A stretch of 63,372 nucleotides of DNA, the filler included, from Pseudovirgaria hyperparasitica (taxonomy: Eukaryota), in NCBI GenBank assembly GCA_010093815.1. It is 3 parts of 2 records of this genome, joined end to end, with 100 filler letters (N's around TTAATTAATTAA, not from the genome) between each part and the next. Parts side by side here need not be neighbours in the genome. Positions count along the whole stretch, not along the records: positions 1 to 14,925 come from ML996607.1; 2 more parts are not named here. The stretch is one strand, 5' to 3'. Within the stretch, counting starts at the first letter, position 1. Every line of letters starts with the position of its first letter. The translations under genes and the position numbers were made by a program. The notes under the pieces were generated by a model. That model ran no database searches. It was given only the letters and a program-made list of their open reading frames with translations, and was not told the DNA's origin. Of this stretch, positions 1-43,997 are shown one piece after another.

Positions 1-391
1 AGCAAGTCCGGTACCTGCCCATCATCCAATTTCATCTGAGCGAACAACGATCCTAGCGAGTTTCAAACATCGTGAACTTCCTAACGCGCAATGCGAGAGA
101 GATCGACCGGTTCCGAATCCACCGGCAACTCTTCCTGGCCAGGCAAATTATGAAAGAACTGAAAGCCTAGGGCGCACCGAGCTCGACTCACAGACCAGTG
201 GATCGTCATTTTCACAAAAAACTGACGACAACTCAGTCTACAGTTTTCAAGACGACCTCTCGTATCCAGTCGTTACCTCATATCCAGGGCATCTTCAAGC
301 ACCAATCGCGTCGGCGGGTGCTGCTGTCGGCCTCCTTCCGTTTCCAGATGCTAATCATCGCACGAAAAGTCGCACTTCATCTAACATCCAG

Positions 392-754
392 TTGCAAGAT
401 AGGACTGATAGCGGTCTTGCCTTTGGCGGTGACTATGAGCACTATACTAGATTAGATAAATATGGTCGAGCATATCAAATCCCAGTCGAGATTAAGTCGG
501 GTTCGAAACAGGCCGATGATAGACGGAAACGGAACGCAGGCGCCTCGGCTCGTTTTCGCCAACGACGGAAAGCGAGAGAGAAGGAACTTGCATCAAAATT
601 GGATGCTGCCTCCAAAGAAGTAGAGGCTGCTCGGGCAACCATAGAGGATCTCAAATGCCGTTTGGACCAGGCGCTGGAGGACAAAGAATTCTGTCGACAA
701 AAGTCAGCCACCTTAGAAATTCGAGAAATGACCAGAGTCACAAAAGACATCTAG
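392..754 (+). CDS. bZIP transcription factor-like protein (5' end uncertain)
   Basis: Basic region KQADDRRKRNAGASARFRQRRKAREKE followed by a leucine heptad zipper, preceded by the IPVEI..S motif seen in a conserved fungal bZIP family. Confidence 0.75.
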   Translation: MQDRTDSGLAFGGDYEHYTRLDKYGRAYQIPVEIKSGSKQADDRRKRNAGASARFRQRRKAREKELASKLDAASKEVEAARATIEDLKCRLDQALEDKEFCRQKSATLEIREMTRVTKDI

Positions 755-2979
755 GGAGACTATAATCGATTCATCCTCAGTCACCGCTGGGTCTATCGCC
801 AGTATGAAGATATCAATATATTCGCATAACACATACAAGAAATTATCCCCATCGATCAAGCTACGTGGGTGAAATTACGTGTAATGAGTTGAGTGAGGAA
901 TGTGCGGATAATGAAGGCTACTTATCTATATTCCCACCAATTTGAATTGTGTGCGCCGGAATTTGACAAAGGTGATAGTGTTCACTGTCACTCATCCCTC
1001 TACCTTAGTACGATAAGTATCTCTGATGTAAGAGTACATGCAGTCTAGCCTCTCGTACTGGAGAAGTCAAGTTATTGTCTACAATGTCGATCCTACTCAC
1101 GAAAAGTGAGCCACTTCTCGATCTCTATAGTCGGACACTCGTGACTCACTTAGCTAGCTTGCATAGGGATCCGGCCGTTATATGCAATTAGCTAAGTAAA
1201 GACTACCTGGATACATCTCAAAGCTCGCGCAGCTTGGGACTATCACTTGAACTGAAGGAACCGTTTGCTTAAAAAAGGTTTGCGAGGTCACCATGTTGTA
1301 CGACTAGCCGTCTCTTGCAATGCGAAAAATATACCCTAAAAGGCCACATTCAATGCCTGACGCTGTGACGCTTTTCGTCCATGGGCTACCAATATAGGAC
1401 CCGTTTACTGTGGCAGGACCTTAAGAATCAGGGACAGCTTGGATGATACTGAAGAGTACCACGACTCGATGACGTCGCTTATCCAGGCAATTGAATCATT
1501 TAGACTGGATACACAACATCAAGACGATATGCGGGAACCAATTCAGAGGAAGCCTACTACAGCAATGAAGTATCTACAGATCCTGCATGATGCCCAGCGA
1601 CGCTGTATGGTTGAACAACAGAAACTCAACAAAGAATGGCTGCGATTACATGGTATAGAGAGCTCCAATTTAAGACAAAGAATCCAGCAGTATTGCGAGC
1701 GGAATTGGATATGAAAAGCAGTAGAGTCATGACTAGCGGCGGCTTGGTAGACGGGTTTTGCGAAAATCGGATCGATCCCCTAAATGCTCTTCATCAACCC
1801 CGACTCAGCATTCCGACTCAGCAGGCTGAACTCCGGTCTATCTCATTTGCAGCCAGTCTGTTATGCTATCTCGAATGTTTCCCAACTTCGTTTTCACTGT
1901 GTGTACTATTCGTTATAGTATAGTTGACGCTGCCAAATGCAGTATATCGTGAAGATCATGAGCTACAACTACGGAGGTCTCCAAGCTTATAAGAAACGGT
2001 GACATCTCTTTCATCAGCCTCGAATCATGTTAGTGTGGCCTGTCTTTTGTTTAACGTGCTCTATTGGATCATCTATCGGTCGGCTCGCGGGCGCCCCTAC
2101 GCAATCATTCTACCTCAATGTAGAACGCCTCCACGACGTCAAATCACAACTGTATGATCAGGTGTACTTAGATCTATCCTGCTCGGTGTATCGAGGAATT
2201 CGGAAAATCTACAAAATGCTGTGGGATTTCACAGCCTTCAATCGAGTCTTCAACCACTTCCGCTTTGAGAACAGCACTTTTGACTATGATTTCTGAGCCA
2301 GGGGAGTTCGCCAGGCAATAGCCAAAGCATACCCCAAGCCGCACGGCGGAAATTGTTCGACACTCACTCACGGCCTGTGGCTTCTCGCATCAATATAAAC
2401 CTGGGTTGGTCGTTGTTCCGGAAAATCAATTGCACAACAAGCTCACGTCTGCCGATCTAAACTATTTCGAGCTCCAAGCTCTGAAGGCTCTGGCAAATAT
2501 CCTCCCTGCGTGCTTGGGCCGTGCAACAATTGTCCGAAATGAGGTGAAAGGCAGGAACTTTGTGAAATGGTGAATGAGACTAAAAGACAGTGTAGCGAAT
2601 GAAAAGTGAGGTATTCACGTTATACCGACGCAGGAGAGTTCGTGATGACCAGTGAGAAATGGGTGATGTCGAATCAAGTAGCGAATCGATCATTCTGGAA
2701 CTTGATCCTCCGGCCTGCCTGATGCTGCAAATGGGTTCATTGCGTTAGTACTTGGGGTAAAGTGTGTGCGAAGTCGCTTATTACCGTCAATCCCGTCCGT
2801 AACTTTTTCAGCGCAACTCTTGGCATGCACGCCTATGCGCGACACAACGTTTTTCCATAGTAAACGAGCATTTTGAACATTATCGTGCATAGCAGCCGCA
2901 ACGTCGTGAAATACGTCGAATCCACGTATATAGGCACTCATTAGCCTCATCTCCATATTGTATAATACTTGAAATACCC

Positions 2980-5170
2980 CTAAACCATGCCTATAGCGCG
3001 TTATAGTGGTAAGAGGGCTCGTTTTAGTAGGCCGCTTGAGATGCCTAACTGCTCGATAGAGGCTCCTCCTCCTTAAACGCGTCGTATATATTAACTAATA
3101 GTAAGGGCGATAGTAAGCCGTAGTTAGGTAGTCCGAAATAGGAAGTCTAAGAGTAAGACGGCAAATAGTACCCTAGCTACTATTATTAAATAGGCGGCTG
3201 TCATATCTAATCGTAACGCGAATGCGGTAGAGATACTTATCTCTATGCTATAGGCGTTAAATAAGGCTATAGATATACGTTCGTTACCATCACCATTACG
3301 TAGTAATAAGTATAATATAGAAAATAAGCCTCCTCTATTAAGTCCTCCTATAGCTATAGCCCTCTTTATACTATATCTAATATTAGTACTTTATATTAAT
3401 AGAAAGAAGGAGAAATAAAAGAACCTATCTTTATCTCTACGCGAGTTCTAGGCGCTAGATAAAATTAAGGATAGGATAAATAAGGCTATATAAGAGATAG
3501 TTATTAATGAGTCGTAGGAGTTCGACGGAAAAACGTCCCTAGTTATATAATCTTAGTCTACCTTGAATAAGTATATATACTTAATAGAAGTCTCCTTCGC
3601 CCTTATAGATAAGGTCGAGATTCTATCCTATATTAATTATATTTATATAAGGAAACCAAAGCACAATATTAATCTAAAGTTCGAAGTTAGAGTACTATAC
3701 CCTAGATATAAAGCTATGAAGAAACGAAGAGTATAAGCTTCTAAAACCGGCCCTCGTGGCGTAACGTTATTAGTAAATATACGTGGGACGCCTACGCTTA
3801 CTAGTATATATAGCGAATTACTCTCTCCTCCAAATAATCTTAAGATACCGCTATTACACGCCTTTATATACTATATATAAGCTAGGGCACCTAGTTTAGG
3901 AGGGAGACGGAATGGCCTAATTAGCGCCGTGAATACTATATAAGTAGACGTAGTAGTAAATACTACGTAGTATTACCACGCTCTAGTTGCTCGTCTTAAG
4001 TATAGTGTAAGAATAGGGTTATTGGATAGTAGTGTAGTCAGATGGAACAATGGGGTGTATTCTATCACAGAACAAATTACTACCGAACCCTTTCAGTAGG
4101 AATCCGAGAGTATATACACAAAGGGACGCCGATCTGTCTAGCACGTGACTGTTCACCGCCCTTCACGTCACCTCCTGACCCTGTCAGCTGAGGTACGTGC
4201 AGGTCGGGTCCTGCCTAAGGCTGAGTCCTGACATATAGAGTTAATAACTATTCTTATAAGGATAGGTACTATTAGATATAGGCCGATAAAGGCTCTAGTA
4301 TAGGTGCTTAGTACTATAAAGTTATAACTATAGATATCTACTACTAGGTAAACGTACTTACCGTAGAAGTAGAGGAGAGTATCTCTATTAAGAATCCACC
4401 GTCTTTTCTAAAGGAGCGATTCCGTAACCGTAAGCCTATCGGCGTATAGTTGAAGCGTCCTAATAAGCGTTAGCTTAATAAAGAGAAATAGACGAAGTTA
4501 TAAGAGGATATGCGGCTATTTATTACTAAGTAGTAATTATAAGACATAAAACGTAAAGAATAGTAGGCTAAGCGTAATAAGGCTTAAGCTAGACGTAAAG
4601 AGAGACGGGATTGAATACGTGATAAGAAGTAGATAGACGATCGTAAAGTAAAGCGTTATTACCACGACGGTATATTTAAATAAGAGGTTATCCTATATAG
4701 GTATATCTAGCCTTATTTACTATATTCTATTTAGGTATACCCTCCGCCTTAATATTCTTTACCTCTATCTAGTATATTACTAGTTTCTTAAGAAGTAACG
4801 CCGCCTAAGCTAGTTCTAGTAGCTACGGCTTCTAGTCCTGCGGCGCTATATATGGACTAGGTAGAGGTTATTAAGTAGATAATGGACTAGCGGATAGATA
4901 TAGAGAGAGTAGATAAGAAGATCAAGGCGCTAGAGAACTTTAAGGCATGGTTATCGAAGAACTTATATAAGTATAGTAAAGTTAAGGCGATAAGGACGCG
5001 TAGGCACCTATTATATAAGGATGCGCTTATAAATAGTATCTCTATACCATACATCTAGAAGTGTCGCGCGTGGCTATCTAAATATAAGAGAGAGTTAAAG
5101 AAGATAGATAGATAGGTAGATAGGGATACTACTAATACACTTCTACGACTATAGAGTGGAGTTATATAGA
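2980..5170 (+). pseudogene. heavily RIP-mutated second ORF region of the TIR element (product unrecognisable)
   Basis: Very TpA/TAG/TAA-rich, purine-rich coding-like texture inside the TIRs, convergent with the integrase; no open frame; strand is inferred. Confidence 0.35.
4006..4233 (-). mobile_element. solo LTR (228 bp)
   Basis: TG...CA termini, 5-bp TSD TATAG (4001-4005, 4234-4238); reverse-complement homologue of 11019-11246. Confidence 0.9.
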
Positions 5171-5658
5171 CTATATTTTAGGATATATATATATATTCAT
5201 ACTACTTTTATATTACTTGATTAGGAAATACGTTAGAATACGTTAGTAGTAACATTACTCTATAACTTTAGCTCCTTTAAATCTCTCTACTAATTCAACT
5301 ATATCGTGGCTGGCTTGGAGGAGGTACACTCGTACGAAGAGTGAGGGATTGGCGTAGAGTATTTGGTGTGTGTGGTATTGGATGAGGTGAGGGAGATCCA
5401 ATTGGGGATGAAGTAAGATTAACAATCTCTATATTAGTAAAGAGTGTTTGCTGGCAATCTGGACAGGTAGCCACTTCGTACGAAGAGTGGTGCCTCCCAG
5501 TTTTGGAGCAGTAGTTATGGAAAGCATTTAATACTGGCATGGCTATTCGAGATGCAAGTTAAAAGGTTTTCATATAAGAAGAATATTATAAAAGAGAGGG
5601 GCTGTAAGTTATAGAAAAACCAAAGTACTCTCGTACGACGCTACTTCCTAGATTATAC

Positions 5659-7335
5659 TCAATCTACCCAATTAATTATTATTAAGATTAGACGCCTCAA
5701 CATTCTTAAGAGCGGTTCCCTGTATAGTCTATTAGTATACCGCTCTTTATTCTCGTACGGAAGAATGATACTTACAAACAAATTAGGATCTAGATGTGGA
5801 TGTGCTAGGACTTCTAGCCGAGGGGCTATTCTAGTATAGACATGGTCCTGAATCCTACGGCGTAGCTGAACATAGATATCCATAAATGGACTTCTCTGTT
5901 CTTCAGCCGTACGAAGCGGTGTACCTCTATTAAAGCTAAGATCTTCGAGCTGGTTCGTACACCATAGTAGTGTATTAGGTGGTAGATATGCATCCATATC
6001 CTAAGCTCCTGCCTGGCCTCGGATAGTAGCAAGAGCCTCTTGATTAATAGGTACTGCTCCACGTTTAATACCTTTAGCTGGCATAAAGTAATTTCGTACG
6101 GGTGGTCCAGAGACAGCAGATGGTCGATCTCTCTGTCTTCGGATAGGATGCTGATTCCATGTCTGTACGAAGCTTGAAACTTCCGTACGGAGAATTGGAA
6201 TATAGATTGCCTGAATAGTAATCCGATCTGTATAACTCTGTGTATTAAAGATACCTCTCTGCTTAAGCTCTGAGAAGAAGTTCTAAATATCTATTAGCTA
6301 AGTATAATATACTACCGTACGATACATACCCTCCATCGGAATAAGAGTGCCTTAGAAAGCTGTGCCCACCAAGCCTCAATCCTTTGATTAGATGTACTTG
6401 TCCTAAACATCCAGCATTGATTTAGTGGAATCTCTGGGTCATCAACCTGGCGGAGATTCCACTGAATATTTGCCATACAAGTTGTCTCACCACCTCTATC
6501 ACTTCGTACGAAGCGTGGCTGGATACCTCTAATTCTTAAAGTTTCTAGAAACTGAAAGAGACAACTAACTGCTGTAGCAGATGAGATACTAACATAGGCC
6601 CAGATAATATATCTTGAGTATGCATCCATATAGGCATAGATCTCAATACCGTATAAGCTAAGCTTGTGGTACCCATCCATACTCTAGATATAATCAGGAC
6701 CTTTCATAATATGCTGGCCTCTATGGCGCTGAAAATCATGATAGCGGCGTCGTACGCCCTCTGGATTTAAGATCTTCATAGCCTGAAATAGCCGATCTCT
6801 AGATAGATTCTTAGAATAAGTCTTTATATATAGATAGATAGAAGGGTATAGATACCGTACAGTCTGGACTCCAGCTCCTAGGAAATGTGCATGGAGTAGG
6901 CCTCGACTAAACCCATTAATTACTCCTAACTCTAAGCCTTCCCGTACGAGCTGCATTGCCTTCTTACTTTCAGCCTGTTATGCATCAATACCTCGTACCT
7001 TTCGTACGATACCCATATCTATACGACGGCGATATAGAGAACTCCGTGAGATCTTAAACCCTTCTTCTTGAAGGATCCGAATAATCTCAGTATCTGGAAG
7101 AGCTAGTTCAAGGGTAAGAGTACGGATTCTATCCTATAGGCTCTCTCGTACGGAAGAGGGAAGTAAAGAAGAGTCCTTTTAAATCTTCCATGTAGAGAAA
7201 CAGCGCTTGAGCGTACGATGGGATACTGTAATACCATGTACACGCTTAATCCAGGCTAGGAGATCATTCTAGGTATAACCAGAGGTATATTTTGAGATAA
7301 TCTCCATCTGGAGATGGGCTATCTGTTACGCCATT
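5659..7335 (-). pseudogene. integrase-core (IS3EU-type) DDE transposase, probably with N-terminal Clr5-like HTH, broken by RIP stops
   Basis: Motifs DGYHKL..YGIEIYAYMDAYSR, PRFVRSDRGGE and STSNQRIEAWW in ORF 6312-6680; upstream fragment RDRLFQAMKILNPEGVRRR. Confidence 0.8.
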
Positions 7336-7632
7336 ATATAAAGAGAGAAAATATATATAGATAGGCACGTATTACGTACGAAGAGAGGGATATTTAAAGA
7401 GGGGGGAGTAGGTTTGATGTATATGAGTATGCTTTTAAGGTGTGTGCCCTCGGCAAAAAAAAAGTGTGGCCCGCTGACACATACCGTCCGCGGTAGTGCA
7501 TGCCAAGAGTTACGCTGAAAAAGTTACGGACGGATCCATGTAGAATATGCTGCTGCGTTCTTTCTCCTCGCCGACCATCTTTCCGACGCTGTCCAAGTTC
7601 TCTCAAATCAAATGCAAGACACACAACTCGCC

Positions 7633-8387
7633 NNNNNNNNNNNNNNNNNNNNNNNNNNNNNNNNNNNNNNNNNNNNNNNNNNNNNNNNNNNNNNNNNNNN
7701 NNNNNNNNNNNNNNNNNNNNNNNNNNNNNNNNNNNNNNNNNNNNNNNNNNNNNNNNNNNNNNNNNNNNNNNNNNNNNNNNNNNNNNNNNNNNNNNNNNNN
7801 NNNNNNNNNNNNNNNNNNNNNNNNNNNNNNNNNNNNNNNNNNNNNNNNNNNNNNNNNNNNNNNNNNNNNNNNNNNNNNNNNNNNNNNNNNNNNNNNNNNN
7901 NNNNNNNNNNNNNNNNNNNNNNNNNNNNNNNNNNNNNNNNNNNNNNNNNNNNNNNNNNNNNNNNNNNNNNNNNNNNNNNNNNNNNNNNNNNNNNNNNNNN
8001 NNNNNNNNNNNNNNNNNNNNNNNNNNNNNNNNNNNNNNNNNNNNNNNNNNNNNNNNNNNNNNNNNNNNNNNNNNNNNNNNNNNNNNNNNNNNNNNNNNNN
8101 NNNNNNNNNNNNNNNNNNNNNNNNNNNNNNNNNNNNNNNNNNNNNNNNNNNNNNNNNNNNNNNNNNNNNNNNNNNNNNNNNNNNNNNNNNNNNNNNNNNN
8201 NNNNNNNNNNNNNNNNNNNNNNNNNNNNNNNNNNNNNNNNNNNNNNNNNNNNNNNNNNNNNNNNNNNNNNNNNNNNNNNNNNNNNNNNNNNNNNNNNNNN
8301 NNNNNNNNNNNNNNNNNNNNNNNNNNNNNNNNNNNNNNNNNNNNNNNNNNNNNNNNNNNNNNNNNNNNNNNNNNNNNNNNNNNNNNN
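7633..8387. other. assembly gap (N)
   Basis: Run of N. Confidence 0.99.
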
Positions 8388-8819
8388 GCCATCATGGTCA
8401 GCCAGCGAGTCGAGTGGGAATTTGTCATTCACACTGCTCAGTTGTATCAGCGCATGGGTTGCGATGTGCTAGCGCTAGATCTAGTGCGAAGTTGGGAGTT
8501 TCTTACGCCGCCGCCGCAGATGAAGAAGCAGATGCCGACCTCGCCGCTCGCGTCGTATGATCTGGATCCGAGGAAGCTGTTGAGGAGGAGGAGCTCCTTA
8601 GTCGTGGCCGATCTGCCAATCAGAAGGACTATGACGCCTTCACTTCGGAATGGGGTCAAGGAGGGAAGTCAAGAAGACGACGACGAAGAGACTGAGGATG
8701 AAGACGTTGACAAATACGAGGGCGAAAAGGAGAAAGACTCAGAGAAGAAAAAGTCGCAACCGCCGACGCAATTCAATGAACCGGACGCAAACAGCTTGTT
8801 GGATTCTTTTGGATTCTAG
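8388..8819 (+). CDS. RAV1: 3' end of RAVE complex subunit Rav1 (partial)
   Basis: EWEFVIHTAQLYQRMGCDVLALDLVRSWEF and terminal PTQFNEPDANSLLDSFGF resemble the fungal Rav1 C-terminus. Confidence 0.7.
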   Translation, partial: AIMVSQRVEWEFVIHTAQLYQRMGCDVLALDLVRSWEFLTPPPQMKKQMPTSPLASYDLDPRKLLRRRSSLVVADLPIRRTMTPSLRNGVKEGSQEDDDEETEDEDVDKYEGEKEKDSEKKKSQPPTQFNEPDANSLLDSFGF

Positions 8820-8900
8820 AGCGCTCGCGATCGCGCAAAAGTCTTTGGATGTTTTTGTAGAGTAGTCAGAATTTCTATGCCCATGAGTTTAGCCCCATTG

Positions 8901-9836
8901 CTATGCCTTCACAGGACTGAATTGCTTGATACGACCTTCGACCATTGGAGCGATTGCCTAGAATGTCAGCGATTGGCACGCTTGAAGATGAAAAAGACTT
9001 ACCGTTGTCCAATTCACAGTGAATTCGCCATGGTTTAACGGATGACCTAGCTTTGCATCCTCTGTCATCCCGGCCAGCCGCCACCATTTCCGCATGACTC
9101 GTCTCATAACCTCCAGCTCTCGTTCCTGCCGACTCGACTGCGTCGAAATCGGTTTGGTGGTCGCGGTCTCATCCTCGCTGTCCGCATCAACGCCATCCGT
9201 CTCCCCAGTCACTTGACTTCGATTCGTGCGTTCCGCCTCGAACGACTCGAACGCTCCCAGAACATCGTCCGTCGGCGACTGGGGCTCCATATGGGGGTGT
9301 TTGGCCTGCAAATTCCTTTGTACGCCCTGCCAATGTCGACCCATACTTGGCCCCCACATCTTCCATTTCCCGAGCACTTTCAACGACATGAAGTACTGTC
9401 GCAGCAGTGTCGATATCAGGACACCGTTCTCCTCGGACACAATTTCGACTGCCTTACCACCCTCAGCTTCGATGAGTAGCGAATCATACCCATCCTTTCC
9501 GCGCGCCATATAGCCCCTTGTCGCCAGCTTATACACACGGTCCTTGTCTAGCGGCCCGCCTGCAACTTCACAGCTTATAATGCGGGACCCCTCTGGCTTT
9601 TCGGGATGAAACTCGAATTCAATGTTGGAGACTTGTGGAAAGCGACCCTCGAGCGCGGGGAATTTGCTTACGGAGTTCTCGAGAGCTTCGAGGATAGCTT
9701 GCCCAGTTACGTTGATGACAACTACCGGATCTTCGAATGGGAAGCAATTCATAATGTCCTTCAGTCGGAGCACGCCTGGTGGGTATATTTGATCACCTCG
9801 GATAGTACCGGCGGCCATGAGGCCGCAATCTGCATA
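8901..9836 (-). pseudogene. 5'-nucleotidase C-terminal half (5' truncated)
   Basis: ADCGLMAAGTIRGDQIYPPG...FPFEDP...LEGRFPQVS...YKLATRGYM...GKDGY; intron 8958-9002 then last exon AIAPMVEGRI; no metallophosphoesterase half upstream. Confidence 0.8.
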
Positions 9837-10806
9837 GCGGTTGTTTAACCTGTCAGCGGCGGAAGATAAGTGTAAGATTACATAAAATTGATGAAACTTA
9901 TACTGATATAGCGTTGCAGTGCGATAATGCTCGACCAGATTGCAAGTCCTCTGACTAATTACGACTCCACTAGCTCTGCTAACAGATATTATAGGTCACA
10001 GATGTTATCATGCCTGGCTCATCTGCGAACGATCCTCGGCGGGGTGCGCTATCGAAGGCGTCCTTAATACGATATTTGCGCTGTGTGCGGTAGCGATTCT
10101 GGGTTTCCTGTACATGTACTTAGTTTTGGCCGGATCTCGTTCTGATTTGAAGCAATGAAACTTTCAATTCTGCAGTGGATCGATATGAAATCAGAACTCT
10201 TGAGGATACTACAATGAATAACCAATTCATGACCCAAAGATATCAAAACAGGGGAAGACAAATAGATGATTTTACCGTCTGGTCTGTTCGACACTGAGGT
10301 TTCCACATACGTGAGCTAAAGATCCTCTGAGCACTCTAACTATATACATTTCGTCGCATGACGCTCAGAATTAGGGGTTTTGAAACCTCAGGTGACCTTC
10401 GTTTTTTGACCTTTTTGACCTCCAATACTGTTGGAGGCTGGGATACCAGCCACCCATTTCCGTATACTTATACGGTTCCATAGTCTCCTCTAGTTTAGCA
10501 ATCAATCAATCCTTCTACCCTTCTACAACGGTGTCTATATTCCAACAAATACCCCCATATTCAACCGAGTGTTTGAATCCTCATCTCACCTCCAGCTTAA
10601 AACCCGAGCTGAGGACAGGGATTAGAAGACGGTGCGGAAGTAAAGGAAGACGGCGTGAGACTAAAGGATTGTGGCTTCGGGATGGCTGAACCTACCTATT
10701 ATAGGTATGGTTGGAGGTCAAAAATTGACATTTTTGAGCAGCAAGTATTTTTCGCACGTCGACGAGCTCGAATCTATTCGATTTCGCCTATACTTCGGTA
10801 AATCTA

Positions 10807-11565
10807 ATCTTCGCAACTTTTTCAGCGCAACTCTTGGCACGTGTCGCGCGCGCAACACACGTGTTTTTTACCCGATACCTCTAATTCACAAAACCTTATA
10901 TTTTCCTTAATAACTCTAGATTAAAGACTCTAGAAGATAATAAAAGACTCTATATACCTCTATTTATATCTTAAGAATATTTATTAAGTCCTTTTAAAGA
11001 CTAAAGAATCTAAAAGAGTGTCAGGACTCAGCCTCAGGCAGGACCAGATACGCACGTACCTCAGCTGACTTGGTCAGGAGGTGGCGTGATAGGCGGTGAA
11101 CGGTCACGTGCTGAGCAGATCGGCGTCCCTTCGTGTATATACTCTCGGATTCCTACCGAAAGGGTTCGGTAGTAATTCGTCCTGTGACAGAATACACCCC
11201 ATTGTTCCATCTGGCTACACTACTATCCAACTACCCTATTCTTACAAAGAGATACATAGTAGAGAGAATCTCTATTTTCTCTCTATCTTTACTATATACC
11301 TCGGTACTTTAACCCCTCTATATACTTTAAAGTTATAATTATAGAGCTTTTCTTAGAATAACTAATTAATATATTCTTTTTTTCTTAATTTTTTTCTATA
11401 GAAAGTAAGAGACTATATAGAAGTATATTTAGATATAATTAAAAAACTTCCTAGAGTCTTAGTTCTAGAGTTATTAGAGAAAAGGTAGGAGTCTAAGAAT
11501 AAGAGAAAAATGTGTGTGTTGCGCGCAACACGTGCCAAGAGTTGCGCTGAAAAAGTTACGGACGG
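10807..11565. mobile_element. MITE sharing TIRs with the 2793-7533 element
   Basis: AACTTTTTCAGCGCAACTCTTGGCACGTG at the left end and its reverse complement ending ACGGACGG at 11565; AT-rich RIP-like interior. Confidence 0.85.
11019..11246 (+). mobile_element. solo LTR (228 bp)
   Basis: TG...CA termini, 5-bp TSD AAGAG (11014-11018, 11247-11251); same family as 4006-4233. Confidence 0.9.
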
Positions 11566-11753
11566 ATAGAATCTATCGACGGGTGGCGTCCGGACACCGT
11601 CTCTATACTTAAAAATAAGGTTATTCTGGAGGTCAGAAATCGACCTGAGGTTTCAAAAACCCCTTTATTATGCTAGTCAATTAGACGTATAGTCGCCTCG
11701 AAACTATGAAAAGAGACTCCATCATGCGGGTAGAAGTGGGGTCGTTCTGCCCA

Positions 11754-11990
11754 CTAAGCGCATGCTCCTTTTCCCCGCATCCTAGGGTGCCTACGTGCTG
11801 TGCCGCACCATGCACGCAGCCCAAGGTGAAGCTGATGGCTATATTTTTCGGCTGAGCACTGCATGCTACTTTCACGGGAGTTTTCACAGCAAATATCCTT
11901 CCTGTCGAGAAGTATGTCAGGCTCACACATCTCATAGATACACCACCACATGGCCATCTAATCACTATTTTCTGTCTCAGAGCGCGAAGC
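11754..11990 (-). pseudogene. possible degenerate fungal C2H2 zinc-finger fragment
   Basis: WWC...C....DRKD and RAWCG resemble the W-C/RKD/WCGFC fungal C2H2 pattern; frameshifted. Confidence 0.3.
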
Positions 11991-12768
11991 TTTCGCTCTG
12001 AAGGCTAATTCAGGCGAATGACTTCTACAGTGGCAAGATGGGTGTTCCAAGGGGATATGGTAAGTATCATCACATATGGTGTAGTAAACTGACGAAGTAT
12101 AGTTCCACGAACGTCTTTATTCCGCGATAGTGACATGACATATACCCTGCCCAGTCCTTCAGATCCCGATGGTCAGTTGAGTGCCTCCGACGTCATGTGC
12201 AAACATACAGCAAAGACGCACTAACGCGTCGCTAGGTCCTAACCCCTGATAAACTTGCAGATTGTGGGCCCTCCCACGCCACTCCTAACAGGGTGCACGC
12301 AGAGGTCGCACGGCTGGAACACGCAGCGCTCTGATGGTCTATTGGTCGTCGTATAATTACGGGATCGAAAGCAAGCCCTCGCTCTCGTGACCAATCCCCC
12401 GCCTTTGATTGTGAGGGCCCCAGCGAGTCAATGTTGTCCTAGTCCAGAGCGGACTTGAGCTCTGGTTGGGAGTTACCCACGACCTTTCTTTCTTTCGAAA
12501 TCCGCTTCATACGCCATGCCAGGATTGGGATGGCGATCGGAGATATGCCATTCGCGGCTAGAGCAGCATATTTAGGCGCGCACCAGCTTCCAGAGTAATG
12601 AATTGTTAGGTTAATTAGCTTTTTGAGCCGAAAACACCAGAAAAACGTTAGATAATAGGTATACTAACTACTAGACAGCCTTATACCCTACCGAATACGT
12701 ATAATCGGTAATAGCAACGCGTTGGCGACCAGTATACGACAAAATGCCAAAATATGTCCGTCTCACAT

Positions 12769-30184: not shown

Positions 30185-30226
30185 TGGATCCGTCTGTAAC
30201 TTTTTCAGCGCGACTCTTGGTACGTG
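30185..30226 (+). repeat. solo TIR of the 2793-7533 family
   Basis: TGGATCCGTCTGTAACTTTTTCAGCGCGACTCTTGGTACGTG; no partner seen. Confidence 0.75.
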
Positions 30227-39949: not shown

Positions 39950-40483
39950 TTACCTTCGAAAGAAATCAATGCTCAGACAGAGTGAAACTCCACACAGCAG
40001 TAAGGACAGCGATGTTGACAAGTCATGCCCGGTACTTGTTACGTGGACAGGGTCGCCTAGCATTACTGTTGGGAAGGCAGTGCCCCCGACGAAAGACCCT
40101 GTTCCAGTGCCCCAAAGAACACTCTGCGTCGAGTTTGGGTATGGATATGGAACCTTGTTTGACAAGGGTGGCGCAGGTGAGAGTGGAGAGAAGCGAGCGA
40201 CATCAGAAGCGTCGAGGACAGAGCTTGGCATCGACGGGTCGTCGACCTGTGAGCTTCCGTCCTCTGCTCCTCTCCAAGTGGTTTGACGAAGCTCCGATGA
40301 CGATGACGTCAGGGTTGGCAAATTTTTCCCGGCTCCGGCGGTGACCAGAACTTGAGTAGGCGAGGAAGGTTCTGTAATCTGAGAAAGAAGAAGTGTGCCT
40401 TGGCCTACATGACCATCGAATGAGATGCCGAAAGCCACCGTCACGACTACAGGGTCTCCAGTGTCCATGTCTGTGGTCTGCAT
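39950..40483 (-). CDS. Ser/Thr-rich protein with hydrophobic C-tail (possible GPI/cell-wall protein, partial)
   Basis: S/T/P-rich ORF ending LSLLLCGVSLCLSI; 40326-40730 duplicated at 58906-59255. Confidence 0.4.
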   Translation of the reverse strand: MQTTDMDTGDPVVVTVAFGISFDGHVGQGTLLLSQITEPSSPTQVLVTAGAGKNLPTLTSSSSELRQTTWRGAEDGSSQVDDPSMPSSVLDASDVARFSPLSPAPPLSNKVPYPYPNSTQSVLWGTGTGSFVGGTAFPTVMLGDPVHVTSTGHDLSTSLSLLLCGVSLCLSIDFFRR

Positions 40484-41069
40484 GGCAAGTAGTGGAATGG
40501 CATAGAGTCGAGGAACAACGGGCCAAGTATCAACCTGCCTGATATACTGCGTAGGACAGACTTAGCACGGCAAGGACCGGAAACGGGCTCGGCTGTTCCT
40601 AGGTCCTCTGATAGTAAAGCAGTCCCGAACCGTTTCTGCTCTTCTTGTCCTATAAGGGGTGCGGACTACACGGGAAGGACATAAGTGAGATAATTCGAGC
40701 ACTAAGGTATGTTCTAAGATTAAAAAAGTTGTCAGAATAGCAGCCCAAATATACGATCAATCTTCGACCACATTAGATTATGTAAGCAAGCTGATAACTG
40801 CATATCGGCGGATAAGACTTGAGAGCTGGGTTGAGGCCTTGAGCCGACTTCTCCATGAAAGTAGGAGCGATCAATCAAGGAACATTCTTCCCACGATTTC
40901 TAACAGCATGCGAGTATCAGTTCCCTTCGAATTCCCCTACTTTGGGTCATCTTGTGTTCATCCGAGTCGTGTATGAGAGACATTCCACTTTGTTCGAGCA
41001 AGTATTCAACCTGTGTCAAGCTAGAGGACAATACATATCTAGCTTCATTCGATGACAATGGTATGGGGA

Positions 41070-41914
41070 NNNNNNNNNNNNNNNNNNNNNNNNNNNNNNN
41101 NNNNNNNNNNNNNNNNNNNNNNNNNNNNNNNNNNNNNNNNNNNNNNNNNNNNNNNNNNNNNNNNNNNNNNNNNNNNNNNNNNNNNNNNNNNNNNNNNNNN
41201 NNNNNNNNNNNNNNNNNNNNNNNNNNNNNNNNNNNNNNNNNNNNNNNNNNNNNNNNNNNNNNNNNNNNNNNNNNNNNNNNNNNNNNNNNNNNNNNNNNNN
41301 NNNNNNNNNNNNNNNNNNNNNNNNNNNNNNNNNNNNNNNNNNNNNNNNNNNNNNNNNNNNNNNNNNNNNNNNNNNNNNNNNNNNNNNNNNNNNNNNNNNN
41401 NNNNNNNNNNNNNNNNNNNNNNNNNNNNNNNNNNNNNNNNNNNNNNNNNNNNNNNNNNNNNNNNNNNNNNNNNNNNNNNNNNNNNNNNNNNNNNNNNNNN
41501 NNNNNNNNNNNNNNNNNNNNNNNNNNNNNNNNNNNNNNNNNNNNNNNNNNNNNNNNNNNNNNNNNNNNNNNNNNNNNNNNNNNNNNNNNNNNNNNNNNNN
41601 NNNNNNNNNNNNNNNNNNNNNNNNNNNNNNNNNNNNNNNNNNNNNNNNNNNNNNNNNNNNNNNNNNNNNNNNNNNNNNNNNNNNNNNNNNNNNNNNNNNN
41701 NNNNNNNNNNNNNNNNNNNNNNNNNNNNNNNNNNNNNNNNNNNNNNNNNNNNNNNNNNNNNNNNNNNNNNNNNNNNNNNNNNNNNNNNNNNNNNNNNNNN
41801 NNNNNNNNNNNNNNNNNNNNNNNNNNNNNNNNNNNNNNNNNNNNNNNNNNNNNNNNNNNNNNNNNNNNNNNNNNNNNNNNNNNNNNNNNNNNNNNNNNNN
41901 NNNNNNNNNNNNNN
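41070..41914. other. assembly gap (N)
   Basis: Run of N. Confidence 0.99.
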
Positions 41915-42578
41915 ATAGGTTTGGCTGTGTCAAACATATCGAGTGGTGAAGAAGGCAACCAAATGACGGTGTGTTGACCGGTCAGAGACATACGAAGTTA
42001 TATATTTCGGGGCGAGTAATATGGGGAAGCTACTTCGCAGAAAGCGCCAGATGAGCCCGTAAGTCAAAGGGGCCACGCGAGAATCGTTAAATTTTGAAAA
42101 GGATCGTTATGGGGGTGCTTCTGACGGTCGTTCAGAGTATACCAACTCAAAGCTACGGCGCTAATAGCAGAGGTGATACAGAACAGGCAAGATATCTTCG
42201 TAGTGTTGGGCGTGGGTTGCTCACTGGTCCGTGAAAAACAAAAGTAGACACAGGGGTCGGGACCTAGCAACGCGTTTCTATTTCTTTACTGTTCGAATTG
42301 CGCTACTAGGAAATTTCATGCTATTCTTCTCTAAAATGACAATAACATGGCTCTCCCACCAGCAGGGGTTACATTTCAAAGATGTGTGGTTGGGCCTACC
42401 TGATAATTAACATCTATATTAAATCCTTTATTAAGGATAGCCCAAGGCATCTGTATACCATTTCGCCAAGTAATAATGTAGGACAATTCCACGTGCTATG
42501 AGGAGCTCCATGAAGGGCAGTCTCACGATACTGGGGGCTTGCATACTTAGTGCATCAATCTACAGGCAAGTAGCCCAA

Positions 42579-42648
42579 CATACGGCTAAACCGTGGCCCC
42601 GACCGCAAAAATCCGTTTTTGCGGTCAGGGCCACGGTTTAGCCGTATG
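42579..42648. repeat. near-perfect 33-bp-arm hairpin; possible TIR-only Tc1/mariner relic with TA flanks
   Basis: CATACGGCTAAACCGTGGCCCCGACCGCAAAAA-TCCG-TTTTTGCGGTCAGGGCCACGGTTTAGCCGTATG, one mismatch. Confidence 0.85.
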
Positions 42649-43997
42649 ATCAAGGTACCTGCATTTACCCTCACCCCCTGGTTCATGCAACAGATATGCA
42701 GCACTACTGTCTCGTCCTCCACAGCAGTTGCCTTCTTTCCAGTGATGGGGGATAATGAGTTATACTCCGGAGCTCGTGAATAGGTTCATGGTCAACGACA
42801 AACCCAAAACATAAAGACCCCGTATATCTTCGAAATTTACATTAGAGCGGATTATTATTACCTAGCTTAACTCAAAGTGTATAGGAACGCCTTCGCCTAC
42901 TTGAAAGACACTCTCATGGGTGGGCTCTTGTTTGAAGTGAAGGTATACATAATTGGCACTACGCATGTAAGTTCACCAAATGCCTTGGTGACGCGGCCGC
43001 TCGTACGAAAAAAAAAGTTGGGATAGCCAACAATTAGGCCCGGTATTGTGTGGCAAGTATCGTATCCCGGGCCGACCTTCTGAAGGCGTTTTCGGAGTAG
43101 TCTTTCCTGGCTCCTCGTCTCCTGAACTGGCTTCAATGTCATATTGATTGGACCAGGCGTGACTAGAAACAGTGCGGTTTGTTGGTTGTGCTTCGCACAC
43201 TGCTTTATCTCGTCAATTCACTAGTTACATTCAAAGAGGACTGTAAGGATGACAAGCGCCGCATTGTATTTCTCTTGATCGAGATAATGTGTAGCGGCTG
43301 GAGAGACATGTTGGATTCAAGAAGGCACCGAAATGGCGGTATACTAATCGGTGGGTGGCTTATATAGCTCCAGGTCCGGGTACGGTCCATGATGCATGAC
43401 ACGGTCGAAGCGATTGCATATCCAACATCTGACTACAGGTCGTCATCGGAAATCGTCACAGGTGATAATCTTTTATTGCCGTGCCGAGCAAGGACCAAAC
43501 ACAGGGATCGATGAAACTATCCATTGATGAGCAGTAGCATAACTTTGAGCCAGCCGCCTCGGCTTATGCTCCTAGTGGTATTGACGCAGCCTTGATATCT
43601 TGATGTAGAGCGCTTCCAGGTCCCATACATCGAAGCAATCCATCCAACGAGACCAGCATGGATGTTGGGTTCCGATCCCCACCCACGCTGGGATTCTCTG
43701 GTCGAAAATGACATATCTTGAGTCGGAATGCCAGGTTGGGAGGCAGGAGGACTCACTTTTGATCCCGTATACGACGATCAGTAGTGCCAGTGCTGCTTCG
43801 TCGCACACCAGCCGCCAGTCTGCGAGTCTATCAAGGGTCAAGACCACAGCGTGGTTTCAGGCATGCTCTGGCGCGGGGCGTAGCTGATGGACAGTCTACA
43901 GGATCCCTGCTCCACTGGGCAATCGGAGTGCTGGTCCGGCAAGGAGTGTCCTGGCAACAATACTGTGAGGAAGACACTCCTTCCGGTTCCCTTGTTT

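Follow-up and report, generated by a model that had tools for sequence, protein, structure and literature searches.

An 8-bp palindrome maintained through the interior of IS3EU-type fungal transposons, with a probable remnant in Pseudovirgaria hyperparasitica

Introduction

Short words bound by proteins are known from the ends of transposons or from a leader. Ac/Ds, En/Spm, Hermes and the P element possess subterminal transposase-binding repeats, with many copies of a short word near the ends, and Drosophila gypsy carries 12 Su(Hw) sites clustered in ~350 bp of its leader, with an effect at the chromatin level. Among cyanobacteria, HIP1 (GCGATCGC) is reportedly a highly iterated 8-bp palindrome, present genome-wide and in all frames via codon choice (a description attributed to Elhai, 2015), and methylation-linked short-patch repair has been proposed for it. 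Here we analyze an array of the palindrome CGTACG, and of its full form TCGTACGA, in a 63,372-nucleotide stretch of DNA of the fungus Pseudovirgaria hyperparasitica (GCA_010093815.1; three parts of two records, joined by filler letters), hereafter the window, where the array overlies a dead copy of an IS3EU-type DNA transposon, together with 80 metagenome loci (designated L001 to L080) fetched with a profile of nine full-length homologues of its transposase.

The IS3EU superfamily of Repbase is characterized by terminal inverted repeats (TIRs) of more than 30 bp ending in TAYGG..CCRTA (PMC12730594). Our element appears to be an IS3EU-type transposon by its IS3/integrase-like DDE transposase and, in its relatives, by the termini: the complete element L003 (4393 bp, with 43-nt TIRs) ends in TACGG...CCGTA, and L015 (5011 bp, with 54-nt TIRs) has TACGG at its left end. 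By contrast, the 6-bp target duplications of the superfamily are seen neither at L003 (flanks GGATAC / CATGGT) nor at L015. The closest described element is REP9/Styx of Zymoseptoria, an IS3EU-like class II multi-gene DNA transposon of the Pezizomycotina that undergoes repeat-induced point mutation (RIP; PMC8232023, PMC10853768). Like our elements it encodes a DDE transposase with an integrase core (RVE); it also has DUF3716 accessory genes, as do seven of our relatives, and TIRs of 43 bp, exactly as long as those of L003. It is larger (7.9 kb and four genes, against 4393 bp in L003). The main texts of these two papers mention no internal palindrome array.

The word TCGTACGA has a counterpart in a host gene. 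According to two reports (PMC6637983, PMC8252799), the Pfcyp51 promoter of Pseudocercospora fijiensis carries tandem 16-20-bp units with TCGTACGA as their palindromic core, in 1 to 6 copies, more copies accompanying higher expression and lower azole sensitivity; their authors regard the repeat as a likely enhancer whose factor is unknown. The 8-bp word is identical in both systems, and its copy number matters at Pfcyp51. However, there the units stand in tandem in one host promoter, whereas the transposons have 15-39 dispersed and even sites, mostly in coding DNA. From the 19-bp unit of the Pfcyp51 “A element” (TAAATCTCGTACGATAGCA), only the 8-bp core matches, its flanks showing at least 5 mismatches in the window and at least 3 in L021. 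The literature matches listed contained nothing relevant on a factor that binds the Pfcyp51 repeats; the site of the FgSR sterol regulator was discarded as a source of the word, being a CGAA-NN-CGAA direct repeat (PMC6420630, PMC7136401). Among the literature matches listed for IS3EU, for DUF3716 transposons and for TCGTACGA or CGTACG, we found no description of an element-wide palindrome array, although supplements might bear on this.

By analogy, the array resembles subterminal sites, the gypsy Su(Hw) cluster and HIP1 only in kind. Subterminal repeats lie near the ends, as they do in our loci L040 and L076, whereas the TCGTACGA array avoids the ends and fills the body. With gypsy it would share the principle that a transposon carries many sites for a single sequence-specific protein, with an effect on chromatin, but in place of a leader cluster there is one TCGTACGA per ~130 bp over 4 kb, exons included. 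HIP1 pervades a prokaryotic genome; the present word is confined to one eukaryotic mobile element, the flanking host DNA holding it no more often than chance predicts.

An evenly spaced palindrome array

In the window, the array extends over 5331..7380 and is assigned to no strand. It comprises 15 exact CGTACG sites, at 5331, 5477, 5632, 5754, 5908, 6095, 6184, 6316, 6505, 6751, 6943, 7003, 7147, 7212 and 7375, precisely where the initial annotation had placed them; five are full TCGTACGA words, and the gaps between sites measure 60-246 bp (mean 146). The repeated 12-mer that it had reported, CTTCGTACGAAG, lies at 5474-5485 and 6502-6513, and the DNA to the left, said to be free of sites, indeed holds no CGTACG between 2793 and 5330. 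Against the 15 sites of interval 5250-7420, a first-order Markov model predicts 0.18 (Poisson p ~3e-24), and 30 of the 70 CpGs of this interval are contained in them. The window as a whole has 23 CGTACG, compared with 8.9 +/- 3.1 in 100 dinucleotide shuffles, none of which reached 23. The eight copies in the ~61 kb outside the array are close to the shuffle expectation, and TCGTACGA occurs there only twice. Since T is favored before and A after CGTACG at the array sites, the full word is the 8-bp palindrome TCGTACGA. Three additional words, CGTACA at 5956 and 6856 and TGTACG at 6164 (each word expected 0.24-0.33 times), look like sites lost by one CpG transition.

The relatives carry the same word in larger numbers. 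The 80 loci hold 311 CGTACG where 35.7 are expected, and in 22 of them the array or its CpG-decayed form is among the most enriched 6-mers: CGTACG or GTACGA ranks in the top three in 16 loci, as it does in the window, and in six further loci CpG-transition forms (CGTACA, CCGTAC, GTACAA or TGTACA) take the lead. The richest loci contain 39 sites in 4.3 kb (L001, 0.41 expected), 37 (L003), 19 (L021 and L067), 18 (L015) and 15 (L029). A consensus drawn from 230 sites reads T (76%) CGTACG A (70%), and positions beyond these are not conserved; the TA spacer is strict, CGNNCG in L001 having TA 39 times and any other spacer at most twice. TCGTACGA is a symmetric word with all eight positions specified, and it is lost in dead copies. 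Within the array clade it recurs about once per 100-170 bp through the element interior, whether in introns, leaders, intergenic DNA or any frame of the exons, and is missing from the terminal ~160-200 bp and from host DNA. In L003 the first and last sites lie 161 bp and 195 bp inside the ends, the density is 8.6 sites per kb in coding and 7.9 in non-coding DNA, and the 730 bp of host flanks contain no CGTACG at all; the TIRs of L003 and L015 lack TCGTACGA.

Spacing is another regular property of the array. In the window its coefficient of variation (CV) is 0.34, compared with 0.90 for random placement, and six of nine arrays (L001, L003, L021, L067, L004 and the window) have CVs of 0.28-0.47 against ~0.9. 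In five of these six, the window among them, none of 5000 simulations was as even, and in L004 0.4% were; evenness is weaker in L015 (p 0.04), L029 (p 0.02) and L005 (p 0.34). Across 170 gaps the median is 132 bp; lengths of 120-160 bp are commonest and those under 20 bp rare, and we found no convincing finer period beyond this preference.

In a FastTree phylogeny of 78 transposase rows, the array-rich loci cluster, with as few changes in none of 500 label shuffles, and they occupy one large part of the tree alongside decayed and poor copies. Clades at ~35% transposase identity have no array. The place of the window copy is uncertain because of its long RIP branch, and its sites are relics, given that the copy itself is dead (truncated and interrupted by RIP-type stops). 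They are best explained as the remnant (15 intact and about 3 decayed) of an array typical of a whole IS3EU-type fungal transposon clade.

Several relatives depart from this pattern. In L016, which belongs to a lineage sister to the main array clade, nine dispersed TCG-NN-CGA sites have GA, TC, CA or TG at the center (including those at 418, 849, 1500, 1671, 2003, 2055 and 2453), a form of the word with changed center, TCGGACGA, and there are only two CGTACG, neither of them a full TCGTACGA. To judge from the sequence, this looks like a switch of the word’s center with half-sites and spacing kept. In L028, L053, L031, L006, L014 and L009 the array remains only as TGTACA, CGTACA and GTACAA words, as expected from CpG deamination once selection on the sites had stopped. 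The distant relatives L040, L045 and L080 (42-48-bp period) and L076 (65-bp period), at ~35% transposase identity, bear at each end a long tandem series of short units with AGACGGAG or AAGTAAGC as core, the two series being inverted relative to each other; these are classical subterminal repeats, unlike the dispersed array. The ten CGTACG of L046 were rejected as a dispersed array, being part of a 47-bp satellite at 7084-7822 whose unit contains GCGTACGA.

Selection on the DNA word

The enrichment survives null models that preserve what the DNA encodes. In the aligned coding part of the window copy there are nine sites, a number reached in none of 1000 synonymous shuffles (mean 0.94, maximum 4), just as no dinucleotide shuffle reached the count of the whole window. 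The aligned coding parts of 14 array-rich copies hold 112 sites against 13.1 in synonymous shuffles; the observed count was reached in 0 of 1000 shuffles in 12 of these copies and in 1 and 2 shuffles in the other two. The preference is visible in the spelling of amino acid pairs compatible with the word. Arg-Thr, for which CGTACG is one of 24 possible spellings, is written in this way in 53 of 69 cases in the 14 rich copies but in 16 of 157 in 67 motif-poor loci; Val-Arg is spelled (C)GTACG in 42 of 59 cases against 6 of 107, and [SPTA]-Tyr-[GEDVA] is spelled with the motif in 17 of 22 against 18 of 81.

Sites also outlast the DNA around them. L001 and L003 share 21 of their 39 and 37 sites, whereas 13% of background 6-mers are kept; for L002 and L019 the values are 8 of 11 and 8 of 10 sites with 14% of the background, for L067 and L019 6 of 8 and 6 of 7 with 11%, and for L021 and L007 6 of 10 and 6 of 8 with 31%. 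Conservation thus exceeds background 4- to 7-fold in three of the four diverged pairs and about 2-fold in the fourth. Site positions nevertheless turn over: 53 distinct codon positions are occupied across loci, only three of these are common to the window, and 12 window sites have no counterpart in relatives. Where relatives align with window coding sites, CGTACG is found in 12 of 54, 7 of 79 and 1 of 73 aligned loci. Outside the motif, CpG is depleted (observed/expected 0.44-0.57) in four of six arrays, where the motif supplies 35-43% of all CpGs.

These data bear directly on the idea that the sites are a by-product of RIP, which could turn CGCACG or CGTGCG into CGTACG, or of codon usage or chance. 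In its favor, the window copy is RIP-affected (TpA/ApT 1.17, with RIP-type stops) and several of its sites encode conserved Arg-Thr or Val-Arg. However, the un-RIPed relatives hold CGTACG itself, while CGTGCG and CGCACG together stand at expectation (109 against 98.4) and are not enriched; in homologues, these two precursors fill only 5 of 526 aligned cells at the nine window coding sites; and the codon shuffles of the window copy never reproduced its count. Copies in the same organism point the same way. They differ from the window by C>T at 110-118 places and G>A at 126-136, any other class counting at most 11, and these changes have degraded at least the sites at 6943 and 7375, the latter (7375-7380) having undergone CG>TA twice to become TATATA; among the 8 of 16 T>C/A>G places listed, none falls at a motif center. 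The destroyed sites and three single-transition relics show RIP-type mutation eroding the array, not making it. The initial annotation held that the motif lacks CpA and TpG for RIP to hit, but since another copy reads TATATA in place of CGTACG, the word is not immune to the local genome defense and hence not wholly RIP-proof. We regard an origin of the sites through RIP, codon usage or chance as extremely unlikely. Distant living relatives carry CGTACG along their whole length, which indicates that the word is kept by selection, and the shuffles and spelling data show that this selection on TCGTACGA acts on the DNA itself.

Accessory genes of the array elements

Behind the transposase, array elements encode ORF2, an open reading frame (ORF) with no recognizable domain, and a DUF3716 gene, the latter present in seven relatives (L001, L003, L015, L053, L054, L067 and L072). 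Transposase, ORF2 and DUF3716 match the gene set reported for REP9/Styx (PMC8232023, PMC10853768). Of 44 loci, not phylogenetically independent, whose sequence continues for 1.5 kb or more past the transposase, 14 have the array and 10 of these carry ORF2 and/or DUF3716; none of the 30 array-free ones does. The extra ORFs of array-free relatives belong to no Pfam family, except for a neighboring pogo-type DDE_1. By contrast, the array-free L008, L010, L048 and L058 keep a full-length transposase from residue 1-6 on, so the N-terminus of the transposase does not track the array, which is co-inherited with the accessory genes and not with transposase architecture.

The DUF3716 alignment shows six near-invariant cysteines, C-x2-C-x10-C-x10-C-x2-C-x8-C, with many basic residues, preceded by a conserved RPSYINA.LIQSRG helix. 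The structure model of one such protein (P0069, L001:3582-4106, minus strand) has a predicted local distance difference test (pLDDT) score of 87.8, and a PDB profile search, Foldseek (best E 4.8) and VIA-align in wide mode (no Z >= 2) all returned no solved relative; a Gal4-like Zn2Cys6 binuclear cluster was considered as a candidate fold. DUF3716 may be an undescribed zinc-binding fold. ORF2, aligned over its second half only because the first half has in-frame stops in several loci, matches no Pfam family and no usable ESM Atlas entry, its Atlas model having a pLDDT of 0.47.

Candidate readers of the word

The enrichment, its independence of reading frame, the null models and the evidence against RIP make a DNA-level array of binding sites the best reading, and to this extent the initial annotation, which had proposed binding sites overlaid on coding DNA, stands; its suggested binders are candidates and do not have the same standing. 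The sites would be docking places for a sequence-specific DNA-binding protein acting as a symmetric dimer; the likeliest candidate would be an accessory protein of the element itself, the cysteine-rich DUF3716 protein or ORF2. With about one site per nucleosome length, such a reader could occupy the whole element and set its chromatin or defense state, and its occupancy would keep the element expressed or shielded. Three observations favor an element-encoded reader: the accessory genes co-occur with the array, L016 has an altered word, and host DNA shows no enrichment. We propose it tentatively, as a reading that may well be right but on which we would not insist. Several observations weigh against it. 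The confident DUF3716 model matches no solved DNA-binding fold and ORF2 has no recognizable domain; neither accessory gene is present in four of the 14 long array loci, nor in the window copy; and the association may reflect shared descent within one clade. In addition, the same 8-mer is an enhancer core at a P. fijiensis host gene (PMC6637983, PMC8252799), a use that fits a host factor at least as well, and elements whose transposases have just ~45-60% identity carry the word unaltered, as a conserved host factor would likewise explain.

Such a factor is the first of the alternatives to consider: a conserved host transcription activator would bind the sites, the transposon being packed with a strong host enhancer word to secure transcription or open chromatin, in the manner of the Su(Hw) sites of gypsy. 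Besides the Pfcyp51 repeats, the identity of the word across deeply diverged elements, on contigs from many different records, agrees with this. The inverted TCG..CGA half-sites resemble fungal zinc-cluster sites. But only the 8-mer is common to the Pfcyp51 element, 11 flanking positions showing 3-5 mismatches at best; an enhancer would be expected in promoters and not at equal density in exons; the array tracks the accessory genes, one lineage has switched the center of the word, and the rest of the window is not enriched. We consider a host activator rather unlikely, yet worth keeping in mind. A role in RNA, where the self-complementary 8-mer, present in transcripts of both strands, would pair between sites or molecules or bind an RNA-binding protein and so affect double-stranded RNA formation, export or silencing, could account for the site-free terminal ~160-195 bp of L003, which are probably outside transcripts, and sense and antisense RNA would carry an identical palindrome; the absence of intron 2 from one contig of run X3 (see below) would also fit a transcript of some copy. 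It seems improbable to us given that sites in introns and between genes are as dense as in exons and that even, near-nucleosome spacing has no obvious rationale in RNA.

Two further alternatives dispense with an accessory reader. The array might be the product of biased mutation or repair and not of selection for binding, as a HIP1-like 8-bp palindrome in all frames and at very high frequency would suggest, together with the six of 34 unshared L001/L003 sites that lie in alignment gaps and the depletion of CpGs outside the motif. However, only one transposon clade is enriched in the word, which is no more frequent in the surrounding genome than chance predicts, a genome-wide process would neither halt at element borders nor spare the termini, even spacing is not expected from it, and dead copies lose the word (L028, L053, L031, L006, L014 and the three decayed sites of the window), all of which leaves repair bias a poor candidate. 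Poorer still is the possibility that the transposase, with its two Clr5-type helix-turn-helix units, uses the sites internally for synapsis or cis-preference, as with the subterminal repeats of Ac, En/Spm or Hermes. The N-terminal Clr5-type region is indeed present, and the distant relatives L040, L045, L080 and L076 have short-repeat arrays at both ends, inverted; but TCGTACGA is missing from the TIRs of L003 and L015 and from the terminal 160-195 bp, the same full-length transposase exists in relatives without array, and the recognition of ends does not need coverage of the whole body, so that this explanation is very unlikely.

An accessory reader could be taken further than we would defend. 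In this extended version a dimeric element-encoded DUF3716 or ORF2 protein, sitting on TCGTACGA about once per nucleosome, would keep the transposon out of heterochromatin, methylation or RIP recognition, and the same protein-word pair would drive the TCGTACGA repeats of Pfcyp51. We think this combination highly improbable; if it were true, a transposon-encoded activator would underlie a field azole-resistance mechanism.

The transposase pseudogene and the placement of sites

The array of the window overlies a pseudogene of a Clr5 plus integrase-core (rva_4/rve) DDE transposase on the minus strand (5659..7337, its C-terminal end being approximate), with the ATG read at 7337-7335 and at least six in-frame TAA, TAG or TGA stops at Gln or Trp positions, that is, of RIP type. 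Pieces of it match Pfam rva_4 (PF24764) at 1.3e-11 and 4.2e-07, above cut-off, whereas rve (PF00665) scores 24.4 bits, under its cut-off of 32.6. We collected 68 homologues, 39-65% identical over the core, that carry PF24764, PF00665 and PF14420; these proteins of ~500 residues with Clr5 and rva_4/rve come from Aspergillus, lichen fungi, Plenodomus and many metagenome contigs, and tblastn with the full-length P0009, P0047 and P0041 covers the gene from ~7304 down to ~5797. An intron and a predicted intron interrupt it on the same strand. The CGTACG at 6316 lies within intron 2 (6283..6329; 47 nt, reading GTATGT...CTAAT...TAG along the gene), and the run X3 contig joins 6282 to 6330 (CT..AC ends on the plus strand) with exactly these 47 nt absent, a hint of splicing and no more, the run type not being on record. 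Intron 1 (6810..6860, 51 nt) is predicted only, from a 19-residue insert relative to homologues, and would have as its 5' splice site GTACGG, which lies partly over the decayed CGTACA at 6856.

All three reading frames are used by the sites, and non-coding DNA as well. Those at 7212, 6184 and 5908 read as Arg-Thr, those at 7147, 7003, 6943, 6751, 6505 and 6095 as (C)-Val-Arg, and 5754 as Pro-Tyr-Glu; besides the one in intron 2, site 7375 is in the leader, 38 nt upstream of the ATG, and 5632, 5477 and 5331 are 3' of the gene. Some coincide with residues that are conserved (RT at 43, VRSD at 256), others with positions at which homologues have unrelated residues. The 3' flank of the gene (5250..5658, minus strand) thus has three sites, and the 5' leader with the upstream end of the element (7338..7495, minus strand) has one, its last ~115 bp being site-free. 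Other copies in the organism diverge from the window left of ~5309 and match it beyond 7415, with G>A changes. The window copy is therefore probably truncated at ~5309, and the window holds the 5' ~2.2 kb of a longer element. Positions 1-12000 showed no likeness to ORF2 or DUF3716, and a TIR search for the window copy gave only weak, gappy alignments.

The surrounding repeat nest

What the initial annotation had taken for a single element is really a nest of repeats. The 38-nt inverted repeat that frames it (2793..2830 on the plus strand, pairing with 7496..7533 on the minus strand; 97% complementary) resembles the end of a miniature inverted-repeat transposable element (MITE) and does not belong to the integrase element; the left half (2950-5250) is other, heavily RIP-mutated DNA. 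The MITE-like terminus recurs at 11545-11565 and 30190-30210 (in an end spanning 30188-30226), and an intact ~760-bp copy lies at 10812-11565, with imperfect TIRs of ~120 bp (75% alike). At least two nested insertions have split one MITE-like copy, whose ends now enclose the entire 4.7-kb nest; the internal part of the MITE-like element survives as an un-RIPed island (4006..4233, minus strand), 90% identical to 11019-11246. On either side of the island there is heavily RIP-mutated repeat DNA, unrelated at 2950..4005, with (CA+TG)/(AC+GT) of 0.30 there and 0.22 at 4240..5250 (no strand assigned) and no CGTACG in either. With TpA/ApT of 1.17 and (CA+TG)/(AC+GT) of 0.92, interval 5250-7420 is much less RIP-mutated than these neighbors. 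We dropped 2950-5250 as the missing part of the integrase element, since tblastx and blastn found no likeness to the downstream halves of L001, L003, L004, L015, L021 and L067 or to any of the loci, a test that heavy RIP weakens.

To the right of the nest lies the 3' end of a Rav1-like gene (7519-7633 and 8391-8480; Rav1p_C positions 611-640, E 4e-08), with a 754-base run of N at 7634-8387 inside it, and the left flank carries a bZIP gene (2-754) and not the long 5' part of the Rav1-like gene, which means that either this gene is truncated or the scaffold is rearranged at the nest. Far from the nest, positions 40000-43000 have a G+C content of 0.27-0.29 (2-kb windows) with TpA/ApT of 0.92 and (CA+TG)/(AC+GT) of 1.08, that is, no RIP signal.

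Implications

An 8-bp palindrome running through the whole body of a eukaryotic transposon, at approximately nucleosome-length spacing, represents a new type of constraint on such elements, one that fixes the spelling of about three quarters of compatible amino acid pairs. The number of words offers a quick marker to separate live-like from decayed copies of the family. The array also provides a handle on the accessory genes of IS3EU/REP9-type elements and on the response of fungal transposons to genome defense, and it ties these elements to the unexplained cyp51 enhancer word of a major banana pathogen.

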